Shown here piece after piece: positions 18,274 to 25,672 of a stretch of 64,000 nt of DNA (position 1 is the first letter of the stretch; each line of letters opens with the position of its first letter). The notes under the pieces are model-generated. The model was not told the DNA's origin. It searched no databases and saw only the letters and a list, made by a program, of their open reading frames with translations. Both the position numbers and the translations under genes were made by a program. Origin of the DNA: Planctomycetota bacterium (GTDB taxonomy: Bacteria > Planctomycetota > MHYJ01 > JACPTZ01); assembly GCA_016192525.1 (NCBI GenBank), contig JACPTZ010000154.1:4290-68289 (forward strand), given 5' to 3'.

Positions 18274-18480
18274 TCAGCAGGAGTCCTTCTTCTTTTCGGG
18301 CTCGGGCGCCGCCGCGGGCTTGGCGGGGGCCGCCGCCGGCTCCGGGGCGGAAGGCGCCCCGGGGGAAGCGGCGCCCGCGGGTTGAGGGGCGGGGACGGAA
18401 GGGGCCCGGGCCTCCTCGAATCCGCACGAGCAGGCGCAGGCGGCGAAGCTCGCCGCACAGAGCAGACGGATCAGGCGCAT
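18274..18480 (-). CDS. Small Pro/Ala-rich lipoprotein candidate
   Basis: MRLIRLLCAASFAACACSCG looks like a signal peptide with a lipobox-like Cys, followed by a PA-rich tail ending KKKDSC. Short and low complexity, so uncertain. Confidence 0.35.
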   Translation of the reverse strand: MRLIRLLCAASFAACACSCGFEEARAPSVPAPQPAGAASPGAPSAPEPAAAPAKPAAAPEPEKKKDSC

Positions 18481-18688
18481 GAGATCCTCCGAACGGGACA
18501 CGGAAGCGAACCGCCGCAATTATACATCGGCGACCGCCGGCCGAGGCGAGAGATTTTCGAGGTGAATCCACGTTGACGCGAAACAGGCGAGGATCGCTTC
18601 GCCGGGACCTGCGGCACGTTCTCTCGGCCCCGCGGCGGAGGATCCCCCCCCCGGGGACGGCGGAAGAGATCCGAAGGCGCCCTGTGCC

Positions 18689-18717
18689 TTGACATCCTAT
18701 GTACCTTGCGTTACAAT
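18689..18717 (+). promoter_or_regulatory. Near-consensus sigma70-type promoter upstream of padR
   Basis: TTGACA (18689-18694), a 17-nt spacer, then TACAAT (18712-18717), 31 nt upstream of the padR ATG. The atgta motif is repeated at 18699 and 18716. Confidence 0.6.
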
Positions 18718-18748
18718 GTAGTGGCGGGGGAACGAAGGGGCGCCGGAG

Positions 18749-19108
18749 ATGGACGACCTCGAGAACTGGACGGTCCAGGTCCGCAAGGGGATCCTCGAGC
18801 TCTGCATCCTCAACACGCTCGAGGAGGGGGAGCGGTACGGCTACGAACTCGTCAAGGCGCTGGTCGCGGTACCCGGACTCGGCGTCACCGAGGGGACCCT
18901 GTACCCGCTCCTCTCCCGCCTCCGCGTCCAGGGATGGGCGACCACCCGACTGGTGGAGTCGCCCGAGGGGCCCGCGCGCAAGTACTACGCCCTGACGCGG
19001 GACGGCCGGAGAACGGCCGCCGCCATGAACAGCTACCTCGACTCCCTCGTAAAGGGATGTCGGGTCCTGCGATCGTCGCCGGTCTCCACCAGAGGAGGGA
19101 AGCCATGA
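18749..19108 (+). CDS. PadR family transcriptional regulator
   Basis: GILELCILNTLEEGERYGYELVK...GTLYPLLSRLRVQGW...KYYALT is the canonical PadR wHTH pattern. The stop overlaps the next ATG (ATGA at 19105-19108). Confidence 0.9.
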   Translation: MDDLENWTVQVRKGILELCILNTLEEGERYGYELVKALVAVPGLGVTEGTLYPLLSRLRVQGWATTRLVESPEGPARKYYALTRDGRRTAAAMNSYLDSLVKGCRVLRSSPVSTRGGKP

Positions 19109-21783
19109 CCGAATGGACCGCCTCGGCCCGGGAAGAAGTGGATCGGTACCTGTCGAGGGCCGCCGATTCCGCGCGGGCGGACGGCGCCGATCCGAAGGAG
19201 GTCGTCGAGGATCTCCGCCGCCACATCGAAGCCGAGGTGGCCGCCGCCGGCATCGCCCTCCTCTCGCGCGAACGCCTGTGCGAAATCCTCGCCCGCCTGG
19301 GGCGTCCCGACCCCCTGCCGCCCGCACCCGCGCCGTCCGCACCTCCGGCGGCCGGCGCGCCGACTCCGGTCGCACCCGCCCGCCCGGTCCCGGGGTGGTG
19401 GAGAAGCCTCCTCGTCATCGTCTTCGGAGTCCTCCTCCCCGCCGGTACGCTCCTGTTCGAACTGGCGAACCACGAATGCGCGGGACTCTTCTTCGACCCC
19501 ATTCCGACCCTCTGGCATGCGGGTCTCATCGCGCTCGTCCCGCTCACCCAGGCCTTTCTCTGGGGGACCTTCCTCCGCGGGAAGCCGCTCCGAAGGCCGG
19601 CCCTGGGAGGCGCCCTGCTCGGCGTTGCCCTGGGGATCTCCGGGTTCTATGCCCTGCTCTTCATCCCGATCGTTCCCGTCGCCTTCGTCGGAATCCTCGC
19701 CATGGGACTGGGATTCCTGCCGCTCTCCCCGCTCCTGTCGTTCCTCGCCGGCCTGCTCGTTCGCGGCGAGCTGCGGCGTGCGGTCGGCTCGGGACGCCCG
19801 GACGCCGTCCGACCACCGGCCACATGGCACGGCATCGTGCTGGCCATGCTGGCGCTCGCCCTCATCGAGACGCCGAGGACCGTCACCCGAGTGGCCGTTC
19901 GCATGACCGCGTCGAGCGACCCGGCCGAGGTCCTCCGGGGAGTGCGCTGGCTTCGGTGGATGTACGACGAGGAGACACTCCTCGCGATGTGCTACGGCCT
20001 TCCTTCCTCACGCGACCTGATCGGCGCCGCCCTGAGCCTCAGTAAGCCCATTACCCCCCCCCAGGCCCAGAACGCCTACTTCCTGGCTACGGGAAGAGGG
20101 TTCTTCGAGGCCGCGCGGCCCTCGCACCCGCGTGTCGCCCGCGGTTGGGCGGACCGCCGGGAAGTCCTGGATTTCGATCAGGGAGGGGACGCCGTGGGGG
20201 GAAGAGTGACCCATCTGACGCTCGAGGAATCGCAGATCGACGGATCGGTGGACGCCGACGCGGCCCTGGCGTATCTCGAGTGGACCCTGACCTTCCGAAA
20301 CGAGTCGGCCTTTCAGCGCGAGGCCCGGGCACAGATCACCCTCCCTCCCGGCGGCCTCGTCTCCCGCCTGACACTCTGGCTCGACGGCGAGGAACGGGAG
20401 GCCGCCTATGCGGCCCGCGGAAAGGTGCGGGAGGCGTACCAGAACGTGGTGGTGAGGCAGAGACTCGACCCGGCCTTCGTGACGACCTGCGGAAAGGACC
20501 GCGTGCTCCTCCAGTGTTTTCCGGTCCCGCCCGGAGGGGGGGTGATGAAGGTGAAGATCGAAATCTCCGCCCCCCTCCAGGTCACGGCGGCGCCGGAGGC
20601 CTTCCTGCCGATGCCGATCCTCATCGAACGGAACTTCGACCTGAACCCGACAACGGGTCACGCCGTGTGGTTCGAGTCCAAAGAGCCCATCGAGACCGTT
20701 TCCGGCGCGCTCAAGTCGGAGCGTCCGAATGAACGCCTCCACGGGGTTCGGGGCCAGGTCAGCGATGCGGCCCTGTCCACGGGAGAGGCGACGCTTCGGG
20801 TCCGGCGCGCGACCGATCGCACGATGGCCTGGACCCTGGTGCCATTTGACGACGAAGGCCGGATCATCCTCCAGACCCTCGAGCCCTCGCCCGTCTCGAA
20901 GTTCCCCCGCCTGGTGGTTGTCGTGGACGGTTCCCGCTCGATGAAGGGGTACCTGCGGGAGATCGCCTTGGCCCTGAAGGCCCTTCCCCCGGAGGCCGAG
21001 TTGTCGATCCTGGTCGCCTCGGACACGGTCCTCGATCTGTCCGGCCCCCTCCGTCAACGCCCTCCCGCGGAGATTGCCGATCTCGCGCGCCAACTGGAGT
21101 CCCTCGACATGGAGGGCGGCTGCGACAACGCGCCCGCCCTCGCCCGGGCGTGGGACCTCGCGGCTGAACACGCCGACGGTGTGATTCTGTGGATTCACGG
21201 TCCGCAGCCCGCCTTGCTCAGCGTCGCGGGGTCGCTGAGGCAACGATGGGAACGGCGCCCGCAGGGACCGGTCACGCATGAGATCCGGGTCCAGGCGGGC
21301 CCCAGTCGGATGACGGAATCGATGAGGGCCGCCTCCTCCCGCCTTCAGACACTTCCGAGGCTCGGAACGCTGGAGCAGGACATCGCCCGCCGCATCGATC
21401 TCTGGAGCGGGAAGATGGCCGGGGTGACGACGATCCGGGAGCGGATTCCGAAACCCGCCGCCCTGGATGAGACCGCCCGGACCTCGATGCACCTGGCGAA
21501 ACTCTGGGCCGGCGAGGAGGTGGACCGGCTGCGCGCAACGCCGGAGGGGCGTGACACCGCCGTGGCCCTCGCTGCCGGCGCCCGCATCGTCACCGAGGTG
21601 AGCGGCGCCGTGGTACTGCAGAACAAGGAACAGTACGCACAGGCCGGGCTGACGCCGGTGGACCCGCAGAGCGTGCCCTCGATCCCGGAGCCTGGAACGA
21701 CCCTGCTGCTCGCGACGGGCGCGGCCGCGATTTGGGCCGGATGCAGGGGAAAGAGGAGGAGGGTCAGATGCCTCGCCGCGTGA
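19105..21783 (+). CDS. Polytopic membrane protein: HAAS/DUF1700-like N-terminus, multiple TM segments, VIT-like domain, vWA domain, C-terminal PEP-CTERM sorting signal
   Basis: SD agaggaggga precedes ATG 19105. N-terminus REEVDRYLSRA...EVVEDLRRHIEAEV...LGRP. Hydrophobic segments in residues ~100-300. FRNESAFQREARAQITLPPGGLVSRLTLWLDGEE (VIT-like). VVVVDGSRSMKG (MIDAS DxSxS). C-terminus VPSIPEPGTTLLLATGAAAIWAGCRGKRRR. Confidence 0.8.
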   Translation: MTEWTASAREEVDRYLSRAADSARADGADPKEVVEDLRRHIEAEVAAAGIALLSRERLCEILARLGRPDPLPPAPAPSAPPAAGAPTPVAPARPVPGWWRSLLVIVFGVLLPAGTLLFELANHECAGLFFDPIPTLWHAGLIALVPLTQAFLWGTFLRGKPLRRPALGGALLGVALGISGFYALLFIPIVPVAFVGILAMGLGFLPLSPLLSFLAGLLVRGELRRAVGSGRPDAVRPPATWHGIVLAMLALALIETPRTVTRVAVRMTASSDPAEVLRGVRWLRWMYDEETLLAMCYGLPSSRDLIGAALSLSKPITPPQAQNAYFLATGRGFFEAARPSHPRVARGWADRREVLDFDQGGDAVGGRVTHLTLEESQIDGSVDADAALAYLEWTLTFRNESAFQREARAQITLPPGGLVSRLTLWLDGEEREAAYAARGKVREAYQNVVVRQRLDPAFVTTCGKDRVLLQCFPVPPGGGVMKVKIEISAPLQVTAAPEAFLPMPILIERNFDLNPTTGHAVWFESKEPIETVSGALKSERPNERLHGVRGQVSDAALSTGEATLRVRRATDRTMAWTLVPFDDEGRIILQTLEPSPVSKFPRLVVVVDGSRSMKGYLREIALALKALPPEAELSILVASDTVLDLSGPLRQRPPAEIADLARQLESLDMEGGCDNAPALARAWDLAAEHADGVILWIHGPQPALLSVAGSLRQRWERRPQGPVTHEIRVQAGPSRMTESMRAASSRLQTLPRLGTLEQDIARRIDLWSGKMAGVTTIRERIPKPAALDETARTSMHLAKLWAGEEVDRLRATPEGRDTAVALAAGARIVTEVSGAVVLQNKEQYAQAGLTPVDPQSVPSIPEPGTTLLLATGAAAIWAGCRGKRRRVRCLAA

Positions 21784-22583
21784 GAGGGGACACCCTGGCG
21801 CTGATCCTGCAGATCGCGGCCTTCTGGCCCGTCTGGGCGAGGGGGGGCGAACGCCTCATGTCCTCGTCCGAGGAGACCGCGTGGGGGGTTCTGTCGTTGA
21901 TCACGGCGGTCGTCTTTCTGCGCCGGGTCGAGCCCGCGCCCGGAGCGAGGAGGCGGGCGCTCATCGTCGCCACGGCCGGAACACTGCTCTACGCCCTCGC
22001 CTGGCCCGTACTGCCTCCATTGCTGCGGGCGGCGGCGGCCCTCGCCGTCCTCGGCGGGACCCTCTTCTCGGGAGGATTGGGGTTCCGGTGGCCGGCCGGC
22101 GCAGGGGCGCTGCTCCTCCTCTCGCTTCCGGTCGTGCCCACGCTGCAGTTCTATCTGGGCTATCCGCTCCGGGTCGCGGCGGCCGCGCCGGCGGTGGCGA
22201 TGCTGCGACTCTCCGGCTTCGCCGGGTCGCGGACCGGGACCTGTTTTGACTGGGGAGGAAGGCTGATCGCCGTCGATGCGCCGTGCAGCGGCGTCCACAT
22301 GCTCTGGGTGGCGCTCTATCTGACGGCGACGCTGGCCTGCCTCTTCGACCTTCCGCTCCGAAGGCTGGCCGCGTCGGCGCTCCTCGCGCTGGGGACGGTC
22401 GTGGTCTGCAATGCATTTCGGGCCGCCGCCCTGTTCGTGCTGGAGTGCGGCGTGATGGCGCCCCCGGCCGGGGCTCACGACGGCATCGGCCTGGCGATCT
22501 TCGCGATGGCCGCGGTGATTCTCGGCGCGGGTCTCCGACGCCTGAGAGAAGGGAGCCCATGCGCCTCACCGCTCTCCATGTAG
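21768..22583 (+). CDS. Exosortase family protein
   Basis: SD aggaggaggg precedes ATG 21768. Multi-TM protein. Catalytic-type motifs DAPCSGVHML (Cys), VVVCNAFRAAALF (Arg) and a downstream His (GAHDGIG). It immediately follows a PEP-CTERM protein. Confidence 0.8.
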   Translation: MPRRVRGDTLALILQIAAFWPVWARGGERLMSSSEETAWGVLSLITAVVFLRRVEPAPGARRRALIVATAGTLLYALAWPVLPPLLRAAAALAVLGGTLFSGGLGFRWPAGAGALLLLSLPVVPTLQFYLGYPLRVAAAAPAVAMLRLSGFAGSRTGTCFDWGGRLIAVDAPCSGVHMLWVALYLTATLACLFDLPLRRLAASALLALGTVVVCNAFRAAALFVLECGVMAPPAGAHDGIGLAIFAMAAVILGAGLRRLREGSPCASPLSM

Positions 22584-22984
22584 CCGTCTGCGCCCTGGCG
22601 GCTCTGGCACCGGCGCTGACGCCGGAGCCGACCTCCCCCCGCTCCCGTCCGGGGCCGCCGTTCCCGGGATTTCCGTCGAGCCTCAAGGGGCGGGCGCTGG
22701 TGGAGCGCCCGCTGACCGCGCGGGAACGTGGGGTCTTTGCGGATTTCCCGGGACGAGCGGGACGGTTTTCGGACGGAGAACGCGAAGTCATCCTGCGTTG
22801 GGTATCGGAGAGAACCCGGCGGCTCCATCCCGCGTCGGAGTGCTTCGCGGCGATCGGCTACACGATTCGCCCCGCCCCGCTCCGCCGCGACGAGCAGGGT
22901 TGGCACTGGGCGGCGCTGTTCGGGGAGACACAGGGGCCCGGGTTGGCGTGGACCATCGCGGAGAGAGTCCCTTCGCCGGAGTAG
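22559..22984 (+). CDS. Small secreted protein, EpsI-like (exosortase accessory candidate)
   Basis: Signal-like MRLTALHVAVCALAALAPA. RRLHPASECFAAIGYTI resembles the EpsI HsPxxClxGxGW core. It overlaps the exosortase 3' end by 25 nt. Confidence 0.4.
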   Translation: MRLTALHVAVCALAALAPALTPEPTSPRSRPGPPFPGFPSSLKGRALVERPLTARERGVFADFPGRAGRFSDGEREVILRWVSERTRRLHPASECFAAIGYTIRPAPLRRDEQGWHWAALFGETQGPGLAWTIAERVPSPE

Positions 22985-22986
22985 CC

Positions 22987-23820
22987 ATGAACTCCATTCG
23001 CGGGTGGGCCCGATCGGTCGTTCCGTTCGCGGTTCGTCTTGAGTGCCGCCGGCTGGCCCGCGGGCCGGAGTGGGTGGTCGAGACACCCACGATCGCGAAG
23101 GTCAGGGCGAAACCCCGCGAGCGGGCGCGCTATCCGCACCTCCTCGCGCGGCATCGCTCCCCCCTGCTCCGCGATCCGGCCCTCGCCGGCACCGGGCTCC
23201 AGCGCGGGAAGGAGCACAACGTCGCGCTAGCCTCCGGTCTTCTGGACGGCCTGATCGTCCCGCCGAACCGGATATTCTCCTATCATCGAACGGTGGGACG
23301 TCCTTCGCGTTTCCGGGGGTTCCGGGACGGACTGGAACTGCACGCCGGGAAGCCGTCGCGCGGGGTCGGTGGGGGATGCTGTCAGGTCTCCAACATGCTC
23401 TTCCTCCTCGCCCTGCGGGGCGGAATGAAGGTGGTGGAGCGGCATCGACACGGCCTCGATCTCTTCCCGGACCATGAACGCACCATCCCCTTCGGGTGCG
23501 GGGCCACGGTGTACTACAACTTCGCGGACCTGCGATTCGAGAACCCGCTGCCCTTTCCGGTGATGCTCGCTCTCGGCATCAGGGACGGTTTCCTCGTCGG
23601 GGAGATCCGATCGGAGTCGGCCCCGGAGTGGACGGTCGAGGTCTACGAGATGGATCACCGCTTTTCTCGCGACGGCGACGCCTGGATTCGCGAGAACCGC
23701 ATTCGCCGCCGCTTCCGCGGCGCCGACGGGGAGATTCTGCTCGATCAGGAGGTCGCCTGCAATCGAGGCCGGGTCCTCTATGACCCCGGGGAGGATCAGA
23801 CATGTGGCGCGCCCTCATGA
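22987..23820 (+). CDS. VanW domain protein
   Basis: IFSYHRTVGRPSRFRGFRDG...GVGGGCCQVSNMLFLLALRGGMKVVERHRHG...GCGATVYYNFADLRFEN matches the VanW pattern (GGGiCQvSstLy...verh.H...DAtV...DlkF.N). Confidence 0.75.
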   Translation: MNSIRGWARSVVPFAVRLECRRLARGPEWVVETPTIAKVRAKPRERARYPHLLARHRSPLLRDPALAGTGLQRGKEHNVALASGLLDGLIVPPNRIFSYHRTVGRPSRFRGFRDGLELHAGKPSRGVGGGCCQVSNMLFLLALRGGMKVVERHRHGLDLFPDHERTIPFGCGATVYYNFADLRFENPLPFPVMLALGIRDGFLVGEIRSESAPEWTVEVYEMDHRFSRDGDAWIRENRIRRRFRGADGEILLDQEVACNRGRVLYDPGEDQTCGAPS

Positions 23821-24758
23821 AGGGGGCCATTCTCGCCGGGTTCGGACGGTTCCCGGGCGGGACACGCCTCTATCGCCATCTCACGCGCGAACGGATGGGC
23901 ACACAGGCCACTCACGTGGACAAGTTGCGACGCGTGTGGCCGGGCTACGTCGGGGTCTGGGAGGGACATGGAACCCTTCGCATGGAAGGGCTCCGGGTCT
24001 GGGTTCACGAGGCGGGATGGACCCCGTACGCGCCGCTGATCAACTACCTCCTCACCGGGAGCGGAGGCATCCTTACGAACGTGGAGGGACGCCTGCTGGA
24101 CAAGTACCTTTCGCGCGCCGTCAACGGGTCCCTCGGGACAGCCCTTCCGCCGGAGCGCTTTCCGCGGGGGCGGCGGCGACGCGTGGAGGGACTTCGCTGG
24201 TGCATGCGGGTCGAGGACGCGCTCCGGGAGATCGGCGCGGAGGTCCACCAGGACGTGAATCCCGCCTCGCTCCCGCTTCCCTCTTCGTCGGTGGATCTCT
24301 GTCACTCGGGTGGCACGCTGGAGCACTACCGCCCTGGCCGGCTCCGGGGGTTTCTGGCCGAGTGCTTCCGAATCCTGCGTCCCGGGGGTGTGGCCTCGCA
24401 TGTCTTCGACCACCGGGATCATCTCTTCCATGCGGACGCGCGGTGGCCTTTCCTCGCCCACTTCGCGCTGCCGGGACCCGTCTATGAGCTGCTGTGCGGC
24501 CACCCGCTCGGCTATCACAACCGGCTCCTGCCGACGGAAGTGGAGAGGCTCTTCGAGGAAGCGGGCTTCGAGAGAATCGTCGTTCGGAGGATGATCCTCC
24601 CGGGGCGCGAATACGTCGAGGAAAAGGCGGCCCTGCGGGGGAAGCAAGGCCTGTCCCGGATGCTGCTGGCGCCCCGTTTCCGCCCGGCCACCGATGAGGA
24701 TCTGCGCACGGCGGCGGCGCACTATCTGTACCGCAAGCCCGCCGCAGCGCAGGATTGA
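23802..24758 (+). CDS. Methyltransferase-fold protein (class I-like C-terminal half; SAM motif I not evident)
   Basis: VDLCHSGGTLEHYRPGRLRGFLAECFRILRPGGVASHVF resembles post-motif II/III of type 11/23 methyltransferases. No clear GxGxG. It overlaps VanW by 19 nt. Confidence 0.45.
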   Translation: MWRALMKGAILAGFGRFPGGTRLYRHLTRERMGTQATHVDKLRRVWPGYVGVWEGHGTLRMEGLRVWVHEAGWTPYAPLINYLLTGSGGILTNVEGRLLDKYLSRAVNGSLGTALPPERFPRGRRRRVEGLRWCMRVEDALREIGAEVHQDVNPASLPLPSSSVDLCHSGGTLEHYRPGRLRGFLAECFRILRPGGVASHVFDHRDHLFHADARWPFLAHFALPGPVYELLCGHPLGYHNRLLPTEVERLFEEAGFERIVVRRMILPGREYVEEKAALRGKQGLSRMLLAPRFRPATDEDLRTAAAHYLYRKPAAAQD

Positions 24759-24765
24759 CACTATC

Positions 24766-24924
24766 GTGGTGAACTTCGATCACCCGAGCCAGATTCCCGC
24801 CTTCGCCGAACCGTGGTTCCTGGCGTTCAAGGCGGACGTGCAGATCCACCCCGTCATGACGATGCAGGACCTTCAGAAGGCGGGTCCGGCCATCGAGAAG
24901 GCGGTGAAGGAGTACGCCTCCTGA
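24766..24924 (+). pseudogene. 5'-truncated remnant of a small conserved gene (retains ...DHPSQIPAFAEPWFLAFKADVQIHPVMTMQDLQKAG...)
   Basis: The frame is open only from inside the methyltransferase 3' end. The only starts in frame are GTG 24766/24769. From memory, the retained segment resembles the C-terminal half of ~100-aa proteins containing FAEPWFLxFNAxV. Confidence 0.35.
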
Positions 24925-25093
24925 GCTGAGCCGGGAAAGTACCCGGCCACCGGACGACGCCCTACCTCGAGAGGCCCTTCACCGGAATCTCCCGCGACCC
25001 CTCGGTCGGGAATGGACCCGTGTCGATGACAACCCGGGCCGTGGCCGGGGACGCCCCTTCCGGAACCTGCCAGGTCCCGGTCGCCTGACTCCC

Positions 25094-25672
25094 TCAGCCG
25101 TACGCCAGCGGGCCGGCGGCCACTCTGGCCCCGTCGCGGGAAATCAGTTCAAAGTCCGCCGGGACCCGGCGGTCGATCTCGCGTCGGCCGGTGTCCATCA
25201 GCGAGGCCTCCATCCCGCCGTGCCCGCCCACCGCGAGCGCGAGGGCGAGCGCGCCCTTCGCGCGCCGGACGCTCCAGCCGATTCTCACCGTCGGATCGAT
25301 CGCCATCTTCACCGTCTCGCCCGCCCTGACCACGATCGACGGACCGTCGCTCCCTGTGCAGGAGAGGATCCAGTCGCGACCGCCCTGCTCCCGCTCGATG
25401 ACGTAGTGACGCACGAGCCAGGTCCCGGGAGGGACCGGTCGCGTTCGGGCCCGATCCTCCTTCCCCCAGGCCAGCCTCAGTTCCACCCCCGGACGATCAC
25501 CGGACCCGGAGACGAGATCGACCAGTCCGCGATCGAACGGAGCTTCGACGAAGCCGCAGGAGTCCGCCTTCGAGGCTCCATCGCGGATCGGCGGGACGGG
25601 CCGCTGTTCGCGCAGCCACGCCGCCAGGCCGCCCCGGACTCCGCCCGACGAACCGTCGGGAGGGGCCTGCAC
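25094..25672 (-). CDS. Hypothetical protein (start uncertain)
   Basis: Long GC3-rich frame. It lies in the same frame as the upstream 70-aa ORF, separated only by TGA (25675-25673). No recognisable motifs. Confidence 0.45.
   Translation of the reverse strand: MQAPPDGSSGGVRGGLAAWLREQRPVPPIRDGASKADSCGFVEAPFDRGLVDLVSGSGDRPGVELRLAWGKEDRARTRPVPPGTWLVRHYVIEREQGGRDWILSCTGSDGPSIVVRAGETVKMAIDPTVRIGWSVRRAKGALALALAVGGHGGMEASLMDTGRREIDRRVPADFELISRDGARVAAGPLAYG

Follow-up and report, generated by a model that had tools for sequence, protein, structure and literature searches.

In the 64,000-nucleotide window analysed here (contig JACPTZ010000154.1, positions 4,290 to 68,289 of the forward strand, from a Planctomycetota metagenome-assembled genome, MAG), an open reading frame (ORF) of 892 residues (19105-21783, + strand; hereafter the client) follows a padR gene and is overlapped at its 3' end by an exosortase gene. 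Our analysis supports the view that this protein is a polytopic exosortase client whose HAAS-type cytoplasmic head is genetically coupled to PadR. Its N-terminal HAAS-type head of three helices is joined by a disordered linker to five membrane spans, which are followed by a VIT-vWA ectodomain and a PEP-CTERM tail. We further suggest, with a probability of about 0.7, that PadR is an autorepressor whose release follows the membrane-tethered head, itself set by the state of the membrane and ectodomain part of the client.

The family core is a predicted inner-membrane protein with five spans, an ectodomain like that of the inter-alpha-inhibitor heavy chains (ITIH; VIT-vWA) and a PEP-CTERM tail, acting as an exosortase client, and the branch seen in the window appears to have added a cytoplasmic HAAS head N-terminally and a translationally coupled PadR repressor gene upstream. 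In the proposed mechanism, PadR dimers sitting on a 21-bp palindrome over the -10 box would repress the operon of padR, client, exosortase and accessory protein, while the head, on its flexible linker of about 29 residues, would bind PadR at the membrane. If the hold of the head on PadR shifts with the conformation of the membrane and ectodomain parts, the output of the operon would track the state of the surface protein. We infer the binding of PadR to the palindrome, the contact between head and PadR, the direction of the response and the signal sensed by the ectodomain; our best guess for that signal is engagement or anchoring, exosortase processing being one candidate.

The + strand from 18689 to 24758 forms a single densely packed gene string with the following features.

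18689-18717, + strand: sigma-70-like promoter, TTGACA at 18689-18694, 17-nt spacer, TACAAT at 18712-18717 (11 of 12 consensus matches)
18701-18721, no strand assigned: candidate PadR operator, a 21-bp imperfect palindrome, GTACCTTGCGTTACAATGTAG (conserved site, weight matrix)
18749-19108, + strand: padR, 119 aa, single-domain PadR-type winged helix-turn-helix repressor (PF03551, E 3.4e-20)
19105-19308, + strand: HAAS-type cytoplasmic head of the client, residues 1-68, three helices then G66-x-P68 (Pfam HAAS, AF2)
19309-19395, + strand: disordered Pro/Ala-rich linker, residues 69-97 (predicted local distance difference test, pLDDT, <50 for residues 74-89)
19396-19908, + strand: five-span membrane domain, residues 98-268 (AF2 secondary structure, family charge pattern, invariant residues)
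20263-20559, + strand: VIT domain, residues 387-485, the extent of the Pfam match (PF08487, Foldseek ITIH1)
20899-21447, + strand: vWA domain, residues ~599-781, with D608-G-S610-R-S612 (weak VWA Pfam, Foldseek, column counts of the metal ion-dependent adhesion site, MIDAS)
21679-21783, + strand: PEP-CTERM sorting signal, residues 859-892, plus the stop codon (TIGR02595, PF07589)
21732-22583, + strand: exosortase, start uncertain, TTG 21732 or ATG 21768, overlapping the client under either start (PF09721, TIGR04178)
22559-22984, + strand: small exosortase-accessory protein, 141 aa (XrtT model match)
22987-23820, + strand: VanW-like gene, start near 22987, ORF listed from 22798 (PF04294, E 1.5e-32)
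23802-24758, + strand: methyltransferase-fold gene (PF08241, E 3e-7)

Association of the HAAS-type head with padR

The family of the client is large and unnamed. It comprises at least 943 clusters at 90% identity and is found in 454 species genomes of the GTDB set, while the first 370 residues alone retrieve 1266 representatives at 50% identity; its members belong mainly to Verrucomicrobiota, Planctomycetota, Lentisphaerota, Acidobacteriota and Thermodesulfobacteriota. The layout of head, padR and PEP-CTERM tail is common in uncultured bacteria. For 80 loci of the 454 species matches we recorded whether the head and the tail are present and whether padR or an exosortase is adjacent. An adjacent padR accompanies 48 of the 50 HAAS-bearing loci and none of the 27 HAAS-less ones (Fisher p = 9e-19, a value that overstates independence, the loci being non-independent and the underlying events few). 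In HAAS-bearing loci padR and the client are separated, or overlap, by only 0-9 nt. The same tight coupling is seen in the window, where, as an earlier sequence-only reading of this DNA had noted, the TGA stop of padR falls within the ATGA at 19105-19108 that begins the client, preceded by the Shine-Dalgarno sequence AGGAGG at 19092-19097, 7 nt ahead of the ATG.

In a tree built from the core region with the head excluded, at least two changes of the HAAS state fall on well-supported branches, with as many as four in all, and padR changes alike each time. For instance, locus L008, with head, padR and exosortase, is sister to L018, which has an exosortase and neither head nor padR (96% support). 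The HAAS-less form is real and not a mis-called start, because the upstream frame of the HAAS-less locus L004 is closed by a stop 30 nt ahead of the start codon. Orthologues of this form retain the five spans, the VIT-vWA region, the PEP-CTERM tail and, in 25 of 26 loci, the adjacent exosortase, all without an adjacent PadR. The non-HAAS heads examined are short and carry no domain, except for one SHOCT-like head that replaces HAAS on a core relative (P0254, residues 1-31; PF22746, E 5e-5, 23.2 bits, cut-off 27). Several loci from MAGs bear Gram-positive labels ('Heliomicrobium' for L035, L043 and L044; 'Bifidobacteriaceae' for L039, L056 and L062); these labels are probably binning or taxonomy errors, since the near-identical sequences lie inside Acidobacteriota or Verrucomicrobiota clades.

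The sequence-only reading had likened the N-terminal residues to a DUF1700/HAAS module. The HAAS half of this comparison stands at the family level, where E is 0.01 or lower for 20 of 34 orthologous heads (best 2.9e-9) and two homologues carry a precomputed PF22564 match; no match to DUF1700 as such was obtained for the head. Residues 16-69 of the window copy give E 0.004 and 17.8 bits against PF22564 when residues 1-71 are searched alone in Pfam, below the gathering score of 27. The predicted helices (residues 6-25, 30-47 and 55-65; AF2 pLDDT about 90-96) and the conserved G66 and P68 (at least 90% of heads) agree with the published description of HAAS (PMC11237479), a run of three helices of which the third bears a GxP motif. 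Taking the orthologue matches, the three helices and the GxP motif together, we accept HAAS membership at the family level on profile and motif grounds, the window copy itself being sub-threshold.

The head is well conserved among orthologues, with a mean column identity of 62% across phyla and invariant residues at W4, T5, A8, D29, E32, V33, D36, R39 and E44; the linker behind it varies in length among homologues. A true start codon downstream of the head, which would take this region out of the protein, was considered and rejected, because of this conservation, the good Shine-Dalgarno sequence, and the position of the next Met at residue 200, inside the membrane domain.

These data bear on an alternative in which PadR answers a small-molecule ligand, in the classical PadR/LmrR manner, and the head is a structural cytoplasmic cap without a signalling role. 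Small-molecule-binding PadR-family repressors are well known, and the head, a generic three-helix unit, matches no solved structure significantly, both of which would suit such a scheme. However, it leaves the strict co-occurrence and co-loss of the head with padR unaccounted for, and heads of the family match HAAS, a profile defined through its link with PadR (PMC11237479). We regard this alternative as very improbable, and favour the coupling of PadR to the head.

Promoter and candidate PadR operator

Within 18300-25300 the only sigma-70-like promoter is the one at 18689-18717, and the palindrome at 18701-18721 spans its -10 box. Classical PadR operator forms were tried and rejected (ATGT-N8-ACAT in 0 of 49 padR-upstream regions, TGTA-N8-TACA in 4 of 49), and the 21-bp palindrome obtained from aligned upstream regions was adopted instead. 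Its family consensus, GTACCTTGT-N3-ACAAGGTAC, is carried upstream where padR is the first gene, and it is present at 13 or more of 18 positions in 22 of the 49 regions, as compared with 0.2% of shuffles and 2 of 27 HAAS-less controls. A weight matrix derived solely from other genomes gives the window site 31.2 bits and the top rank in the 4.18-Mb genome, the runner-up reaching 18.5 bits. From this sequence conservation we consider the palindrome a likely PadR binding site and candidate operator. A top-ranked, conserved palindrome is in favour of a single, autorepressed operon, a mode of control demonstrated for Listeria LltR, which represses its own operon about 150-fold, an operon that encodes a DUF1700 multi-span protein (PMC6624303).

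The remaining padR-upstream regions are preceded by coding sequence, suggesting that the promoter lies further upstream there. In 14 Verrucomicrobial loci (L009, L012, L015, L023, L025, L026, L028, L030, L033, L036, L045, L068, L076 and L084) a conserved multi-span ORF of ~230-300 aa ends exactly at the padR start; it has no Pfam match on record, as checked in L003. The operon of these 14 loci thus appears to begin further upstream, with an extra conserved membrane partner. A palindrome of related shape is also found at -70 to -118 in HAAS-less Pyrinomonadaceae loci (L014, L022, L037, L085 and L086; e.g. GTACTCTGTGGTATAAAGTAC and GTGCTTTATGGTACAAAGCAC). No regulator gene adjoins the palindromes of these five loci, and they may be sites for a trans-encoded factor.

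In this genome the exosortase, the PEP-CTERM match, the PadR homologue, the HAAS-type head and the family member each occur once, counts that are provisional in a MAG 82% complete. With one copy of each part, the module is self-contained, and exosortase and client form a dedicated enzyme-client pair as Haft uses the term (PMC3237569), under a private repressor.

An arrangement of this kind could also act as simple product feedback, in which the head titrates PadR according to the amount of client in the membrane; the loop would control the dosage of a costly surface protein, and the ectodomain would sense nothing. The conserved translational coupling of padR and client would fit such a loop, as would the uniqueness of the candidate operator in the genome, which leaves the operon itself as the sole target, and the autoregulation of Listeria PadR operons of like type (PMC6624303). 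On the other hand, pure titration by a co-translated partner should lead to run-away positive feedback unless it is otherwise limited, and the conservation of the membrane domain and its outer loop (invariant E119, P132, G201, G203 and P209) exceeds what an anchor needs, although the HAAS-less forms have it too. We therefore hold titration alone to be unlikely, and prefer a head whose grip on PadR depends on the membrane and ectodomain parts.

Topology, ectodomain and exosortase processing

An AF2 model of the client, built on 50 homologues (pLDDT 88.3, predicted template modelling score 0.79), places membrane helices at residues 98-122, 136-157, 165-185, 187-200/204-228 and 241-268, the fourth kinked at a conserved G-x-G. 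After the spans follow a helical region, the beta-rich VIT domain, the vWA domain and a final helix at 865-891. The net excess of K+R over the 50 homologues is -1.0 in loop 123-135, +2.0 in 158-164, +3.5 in 220-240 and +3.7 in the C-terminal tail. Even-numbered span topologies were rejected, as three strongly basic segments would then fall outside. Given the cytoplasmic head, the five spans and the positive-inside charge pattern, the model predicts that residues ~269-860 lie outside and that the PEP-CTERM helix brings the basic tail back inside. The five to seven hydrophobic segments counted in the sequence-only reading hence resolve into five spans and the C-terminal helix, and its proposal that the ectodomain is membrane-embedded at both ends before processing is borne out by the model and the charge pattern, VIT and vWA being placed outside and not in the cytoplasm. 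The client has no N-terminal signal peptide; it has the cytoplasmic head and five spans instead, and the fifth span probably serves as the export anchor.

Few parts of the client are as conserved as the outer loop that links the first two spans (residues 124-138, motif CAGxFFDPIPTxWH). Three cysteines, all predicted to be extracellular, are also strongly conserved (C125 and C471 in at least 90% of homologues, C296 in all), and a disulphide among them could tie the membrane domain to the ectodomain.

The VIT-like segment of the sequence-only reading was recovered by Pfam (PF08487, E 2e-5, 25.1 bits, slightly under the 26.5 cut-off), a match also annotated on homologues. The vWA domain gives weak Pfam matches only; with the whole model, the top Foldseek match is human inter-alpha-inhibitor heavy chain 1 (ITIH1; 6fpy, E 1.7e-19, ~590 columns), and vWA domains are matched as well. 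Both the vWA fold and the MIDAS motif DGSRS claimed for this copy are present. The motif does not extend to the family in full: D608 is invariant and position 610 is S/T, but the third serine, at position 612, is not conserved (G in 20 of 50 homologues, S in 10 of 50), and a canonical MIDAS is therefore not a family trait.

The protein ends, as had been claimed, in a tripartite PEP-CTERM signal, composed of VPSIPEPG, a hydrophobic helix and RGKRRRVR (TIGR02595, 17.0 bits, cut-off 16, and 23.3 bits in a six-frame genome search; PF07589, E 0.002, 18.5 bits, below the 20.7 cut-off). The PEP motif is found within the last 40 residues in 79 of the 80 loci. HAAS-type N-termini and PEP-CTERM tails do co-occur in other genomes, the tail being kept in 172 of 178 HAAS-bearing members with most of the rest missed by the regular expression; being near-universal in both HAAS-bearing and HAAS-less forms, it does not discriminate between them.

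The exosortase is well supported (PF09721, E 3.6e-23; TIGR04178 signature, 41.6 bits, cut-off 23). Its nearest subtype is XrtQ (NF012182), at 127.6 bits below the cut-off of 270, the orthologous enzyme of L004 scoring 179.5 bits. The 141-aa accessory protein matches positions 319-394 of the XrtT model (E 1.5e-6) and, by this match, appears to correspond to the C-terminal extension that long exosortases carry; a homologue follows the exosortase in all 33 loci with an adjacent exosortase. It is shorter here than in L004 and L006 (176-178 aa), an internal segment of ~35 residues being missing. The VanW-like and methyltransferase genes have no homologue in any of the 80 related loci and are lineage-specific passengers, tightly packed on the same strand. 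In the genome of L008, also a Planctomycetota member, there are two separate adjacent exosortase/PEP-CTERM pairs (G008:C132:8957-9804 and G008:C68:46654-47568), the second client lying within a 780-aa open frame.

An adjacent exosortase is present in 7 of 46 HAAS-bearing loci, as compared with the 25 of 26 HAAS-less ones. Six Verrucomicrobial HAAS-bearing genomes without an adjacent exosortase encode 1-4 exosortases and 4-25 PEP-CTERM proteins, so that the HAAS protein is there one client among many. The HAAS/PadR pair and the adjacent exosortase are thus modules separable in evolution, because the core occurs without PadR and HAAS, and most HAAS-bearing loci lack a private exosortase. This separability counts neither for nor against exosortase processing being what is sensed.

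The sequence-only reading had gone further and suggested that exosortase action at the C-terminus, by cleavage or transfer, could alter the contact of the head with PadR and so couple sorting to transcription. In full, such a mechanism would have the exosortase shift the tether of the ectodomain, the change would pass through the five spans to the head, and PadR would report sorting. Both client ends are membrane-embedded before processing, the exosortase and its sole client share a predicted PadR-controlled operon, and HAAS-bearing members keep their tails, as would be expected of such a scheme. However, sorting does not need the dyad, since orthologues lacking both head and padR retain tail and exosortase; 39 of 46 HAAS-bearing loci have no adjacent exosortase, and in their genomes many clients share the exosortases; and no tail feature differs between the HAAS-bearing and HAAS-less forms. 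Sorting as the sensed event is in our judgement a quite unlikely explanation, and we retain the broader reading in which PadR release follows the head as set by the membrane and ectodomain part.

Several observations weigh against this broader reading. The independent gains or losses of HAAS and padR number only two to four, leaving a sign test without power, and two HAAS-bearing loci have no intact padR: an unrelated gene lies upstream in L040 (4400-5000), and in L073 (4400-5000) a PadR-like reading frame is broken by stops, indicating a remnant. Besides the sub-threshold score of the window's own head, a Foldseek search with the head alone found no significant solved structure (best E 0.33, RuvB lid and PCP_red-like helices), and the DUF1048 structure 2O3L, named in PMC11237479, was absent from its output; a HAAS-head profile run against all PDB sequences retrieved designed helical repeat proteins only. 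The palindrome reaches the 13/18 level in just those 22 of 49 regions, and the single-copy status of the module is as provisional as the MAG.

Significance and relation to known systems

To our knowledge, the action of exosortases on their clients is known almost wholly from comparative genomics, and few regulators have been studied in Planctomycetota, Verrucomicrobiota and Lentisphaerota. The cassette described here is self-contained, with one promoter, operator, repressor, client, exosortase and accessory protein. If PadR output does depend on the state of the client, it would offer a genetic read-out of exosortase function that could be moved to a laboratory host. Should sorting turn out to be the signal, the operon would contain a built-in transcriptional checkpoint for protein sorting and a ready-made reporter of exosortase activity, a connection of a sortase-like system with gene control that has no known precedent. 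The natural pairs of HAAS-bearing and HAAS-less orthologues make a useful comparison set.

Ravi et al. (mSystems 2024, PMC11237479) put forward HAAS-PadR dyads as a substitute for two-component systems, in which a HAAS domain with a conserved GxP motif precedes a multi-transmembrane sensor; the studied examples are LltR-Lmo0600 and LstR-Lmo0421 of Listeria (PMC6624303). The window locus resembles them in the standalone PadR gene directly upstream of a membrane protein with a three-helix GxP head followed by spans, and probably in the self-repression of the operon. It differs in what follows the head, namely a five-span domain, an ITIH-like VIT-vWA region and a PEP-CTERM tail, with a dedicated exosortase in the operon. 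The partners listed in PMC11237479 are PspC, LiaI-LiaF-TM, Toastrack, FtsX-like, FtsW/RodA and unnamed 2/4/6-TM domains, and VIT, vWA, PEP-CTERM and exosortase are not mentioned in that paper. The HAAS-PadR signalling dyad is thereby extended to a large extracytoplasmic domain of adhesion type.

From the side of protein sorting, VIT-vWA proteins with GlyGly-CTERM, LPXTG or PEP-CTERM signals are known beside their sorting enzymes (Haft, PMC3237569). The clients of TIGR04477 (VIT protein of the XrtN system), TIGR04286 (MSEP-CTERM) and TIGR02921 (PEP-CTERM integral membrane protein) resemble the window client in being long proteins with spans at the N-terminus, VIT and vWA domains, and a sorting signal at the C-terminus; they are likewise polytopic and depart from the signal-peptide rule of PEP-CTERM proteins. 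Each of these systems has one enzyme and one client encoded by neighbouring genes, a pattern that our HAAS-less orthologues fit exactly. In contrast, the window client scores far below their thresholds (85.9 vs 250 bits for TIGR04477, 34.1 vs 150 for TIGR04286 and 18.2 vs 200 for TIGR02921), with matches in the VIT region only. As far as we know, a PadR/HAAS layer is no part of these three family definitions. A literature search on XrtQ, XrtN and MSEP-CTERM returned nothing relevant.

ITIH1 shares the VIT plus vWA fold with the client at ~11% sequence identity; the bacterial protein differs in being membrane-anchored at both ends and in the third MIDAS serine, which its family does not conserve. 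ITIH heavy chains lose a C-terminal propeptide, and the new C-terminus is esterified to a glycosaminoglycan. This C-terminal chemistry may be analogous to exosortase processing.

In the literature searched, no paper joins PadR or HAAS with PEP-CTERM or exosortase, and the remark of the sequence-only reading that such a coupling had not been described holds to that extent. The window locus is hence an undescribed variant that joins two known kinds of system, the HAAS-PadR dyad and the dedicated exosortase with a polytopic VIT-vWA client.

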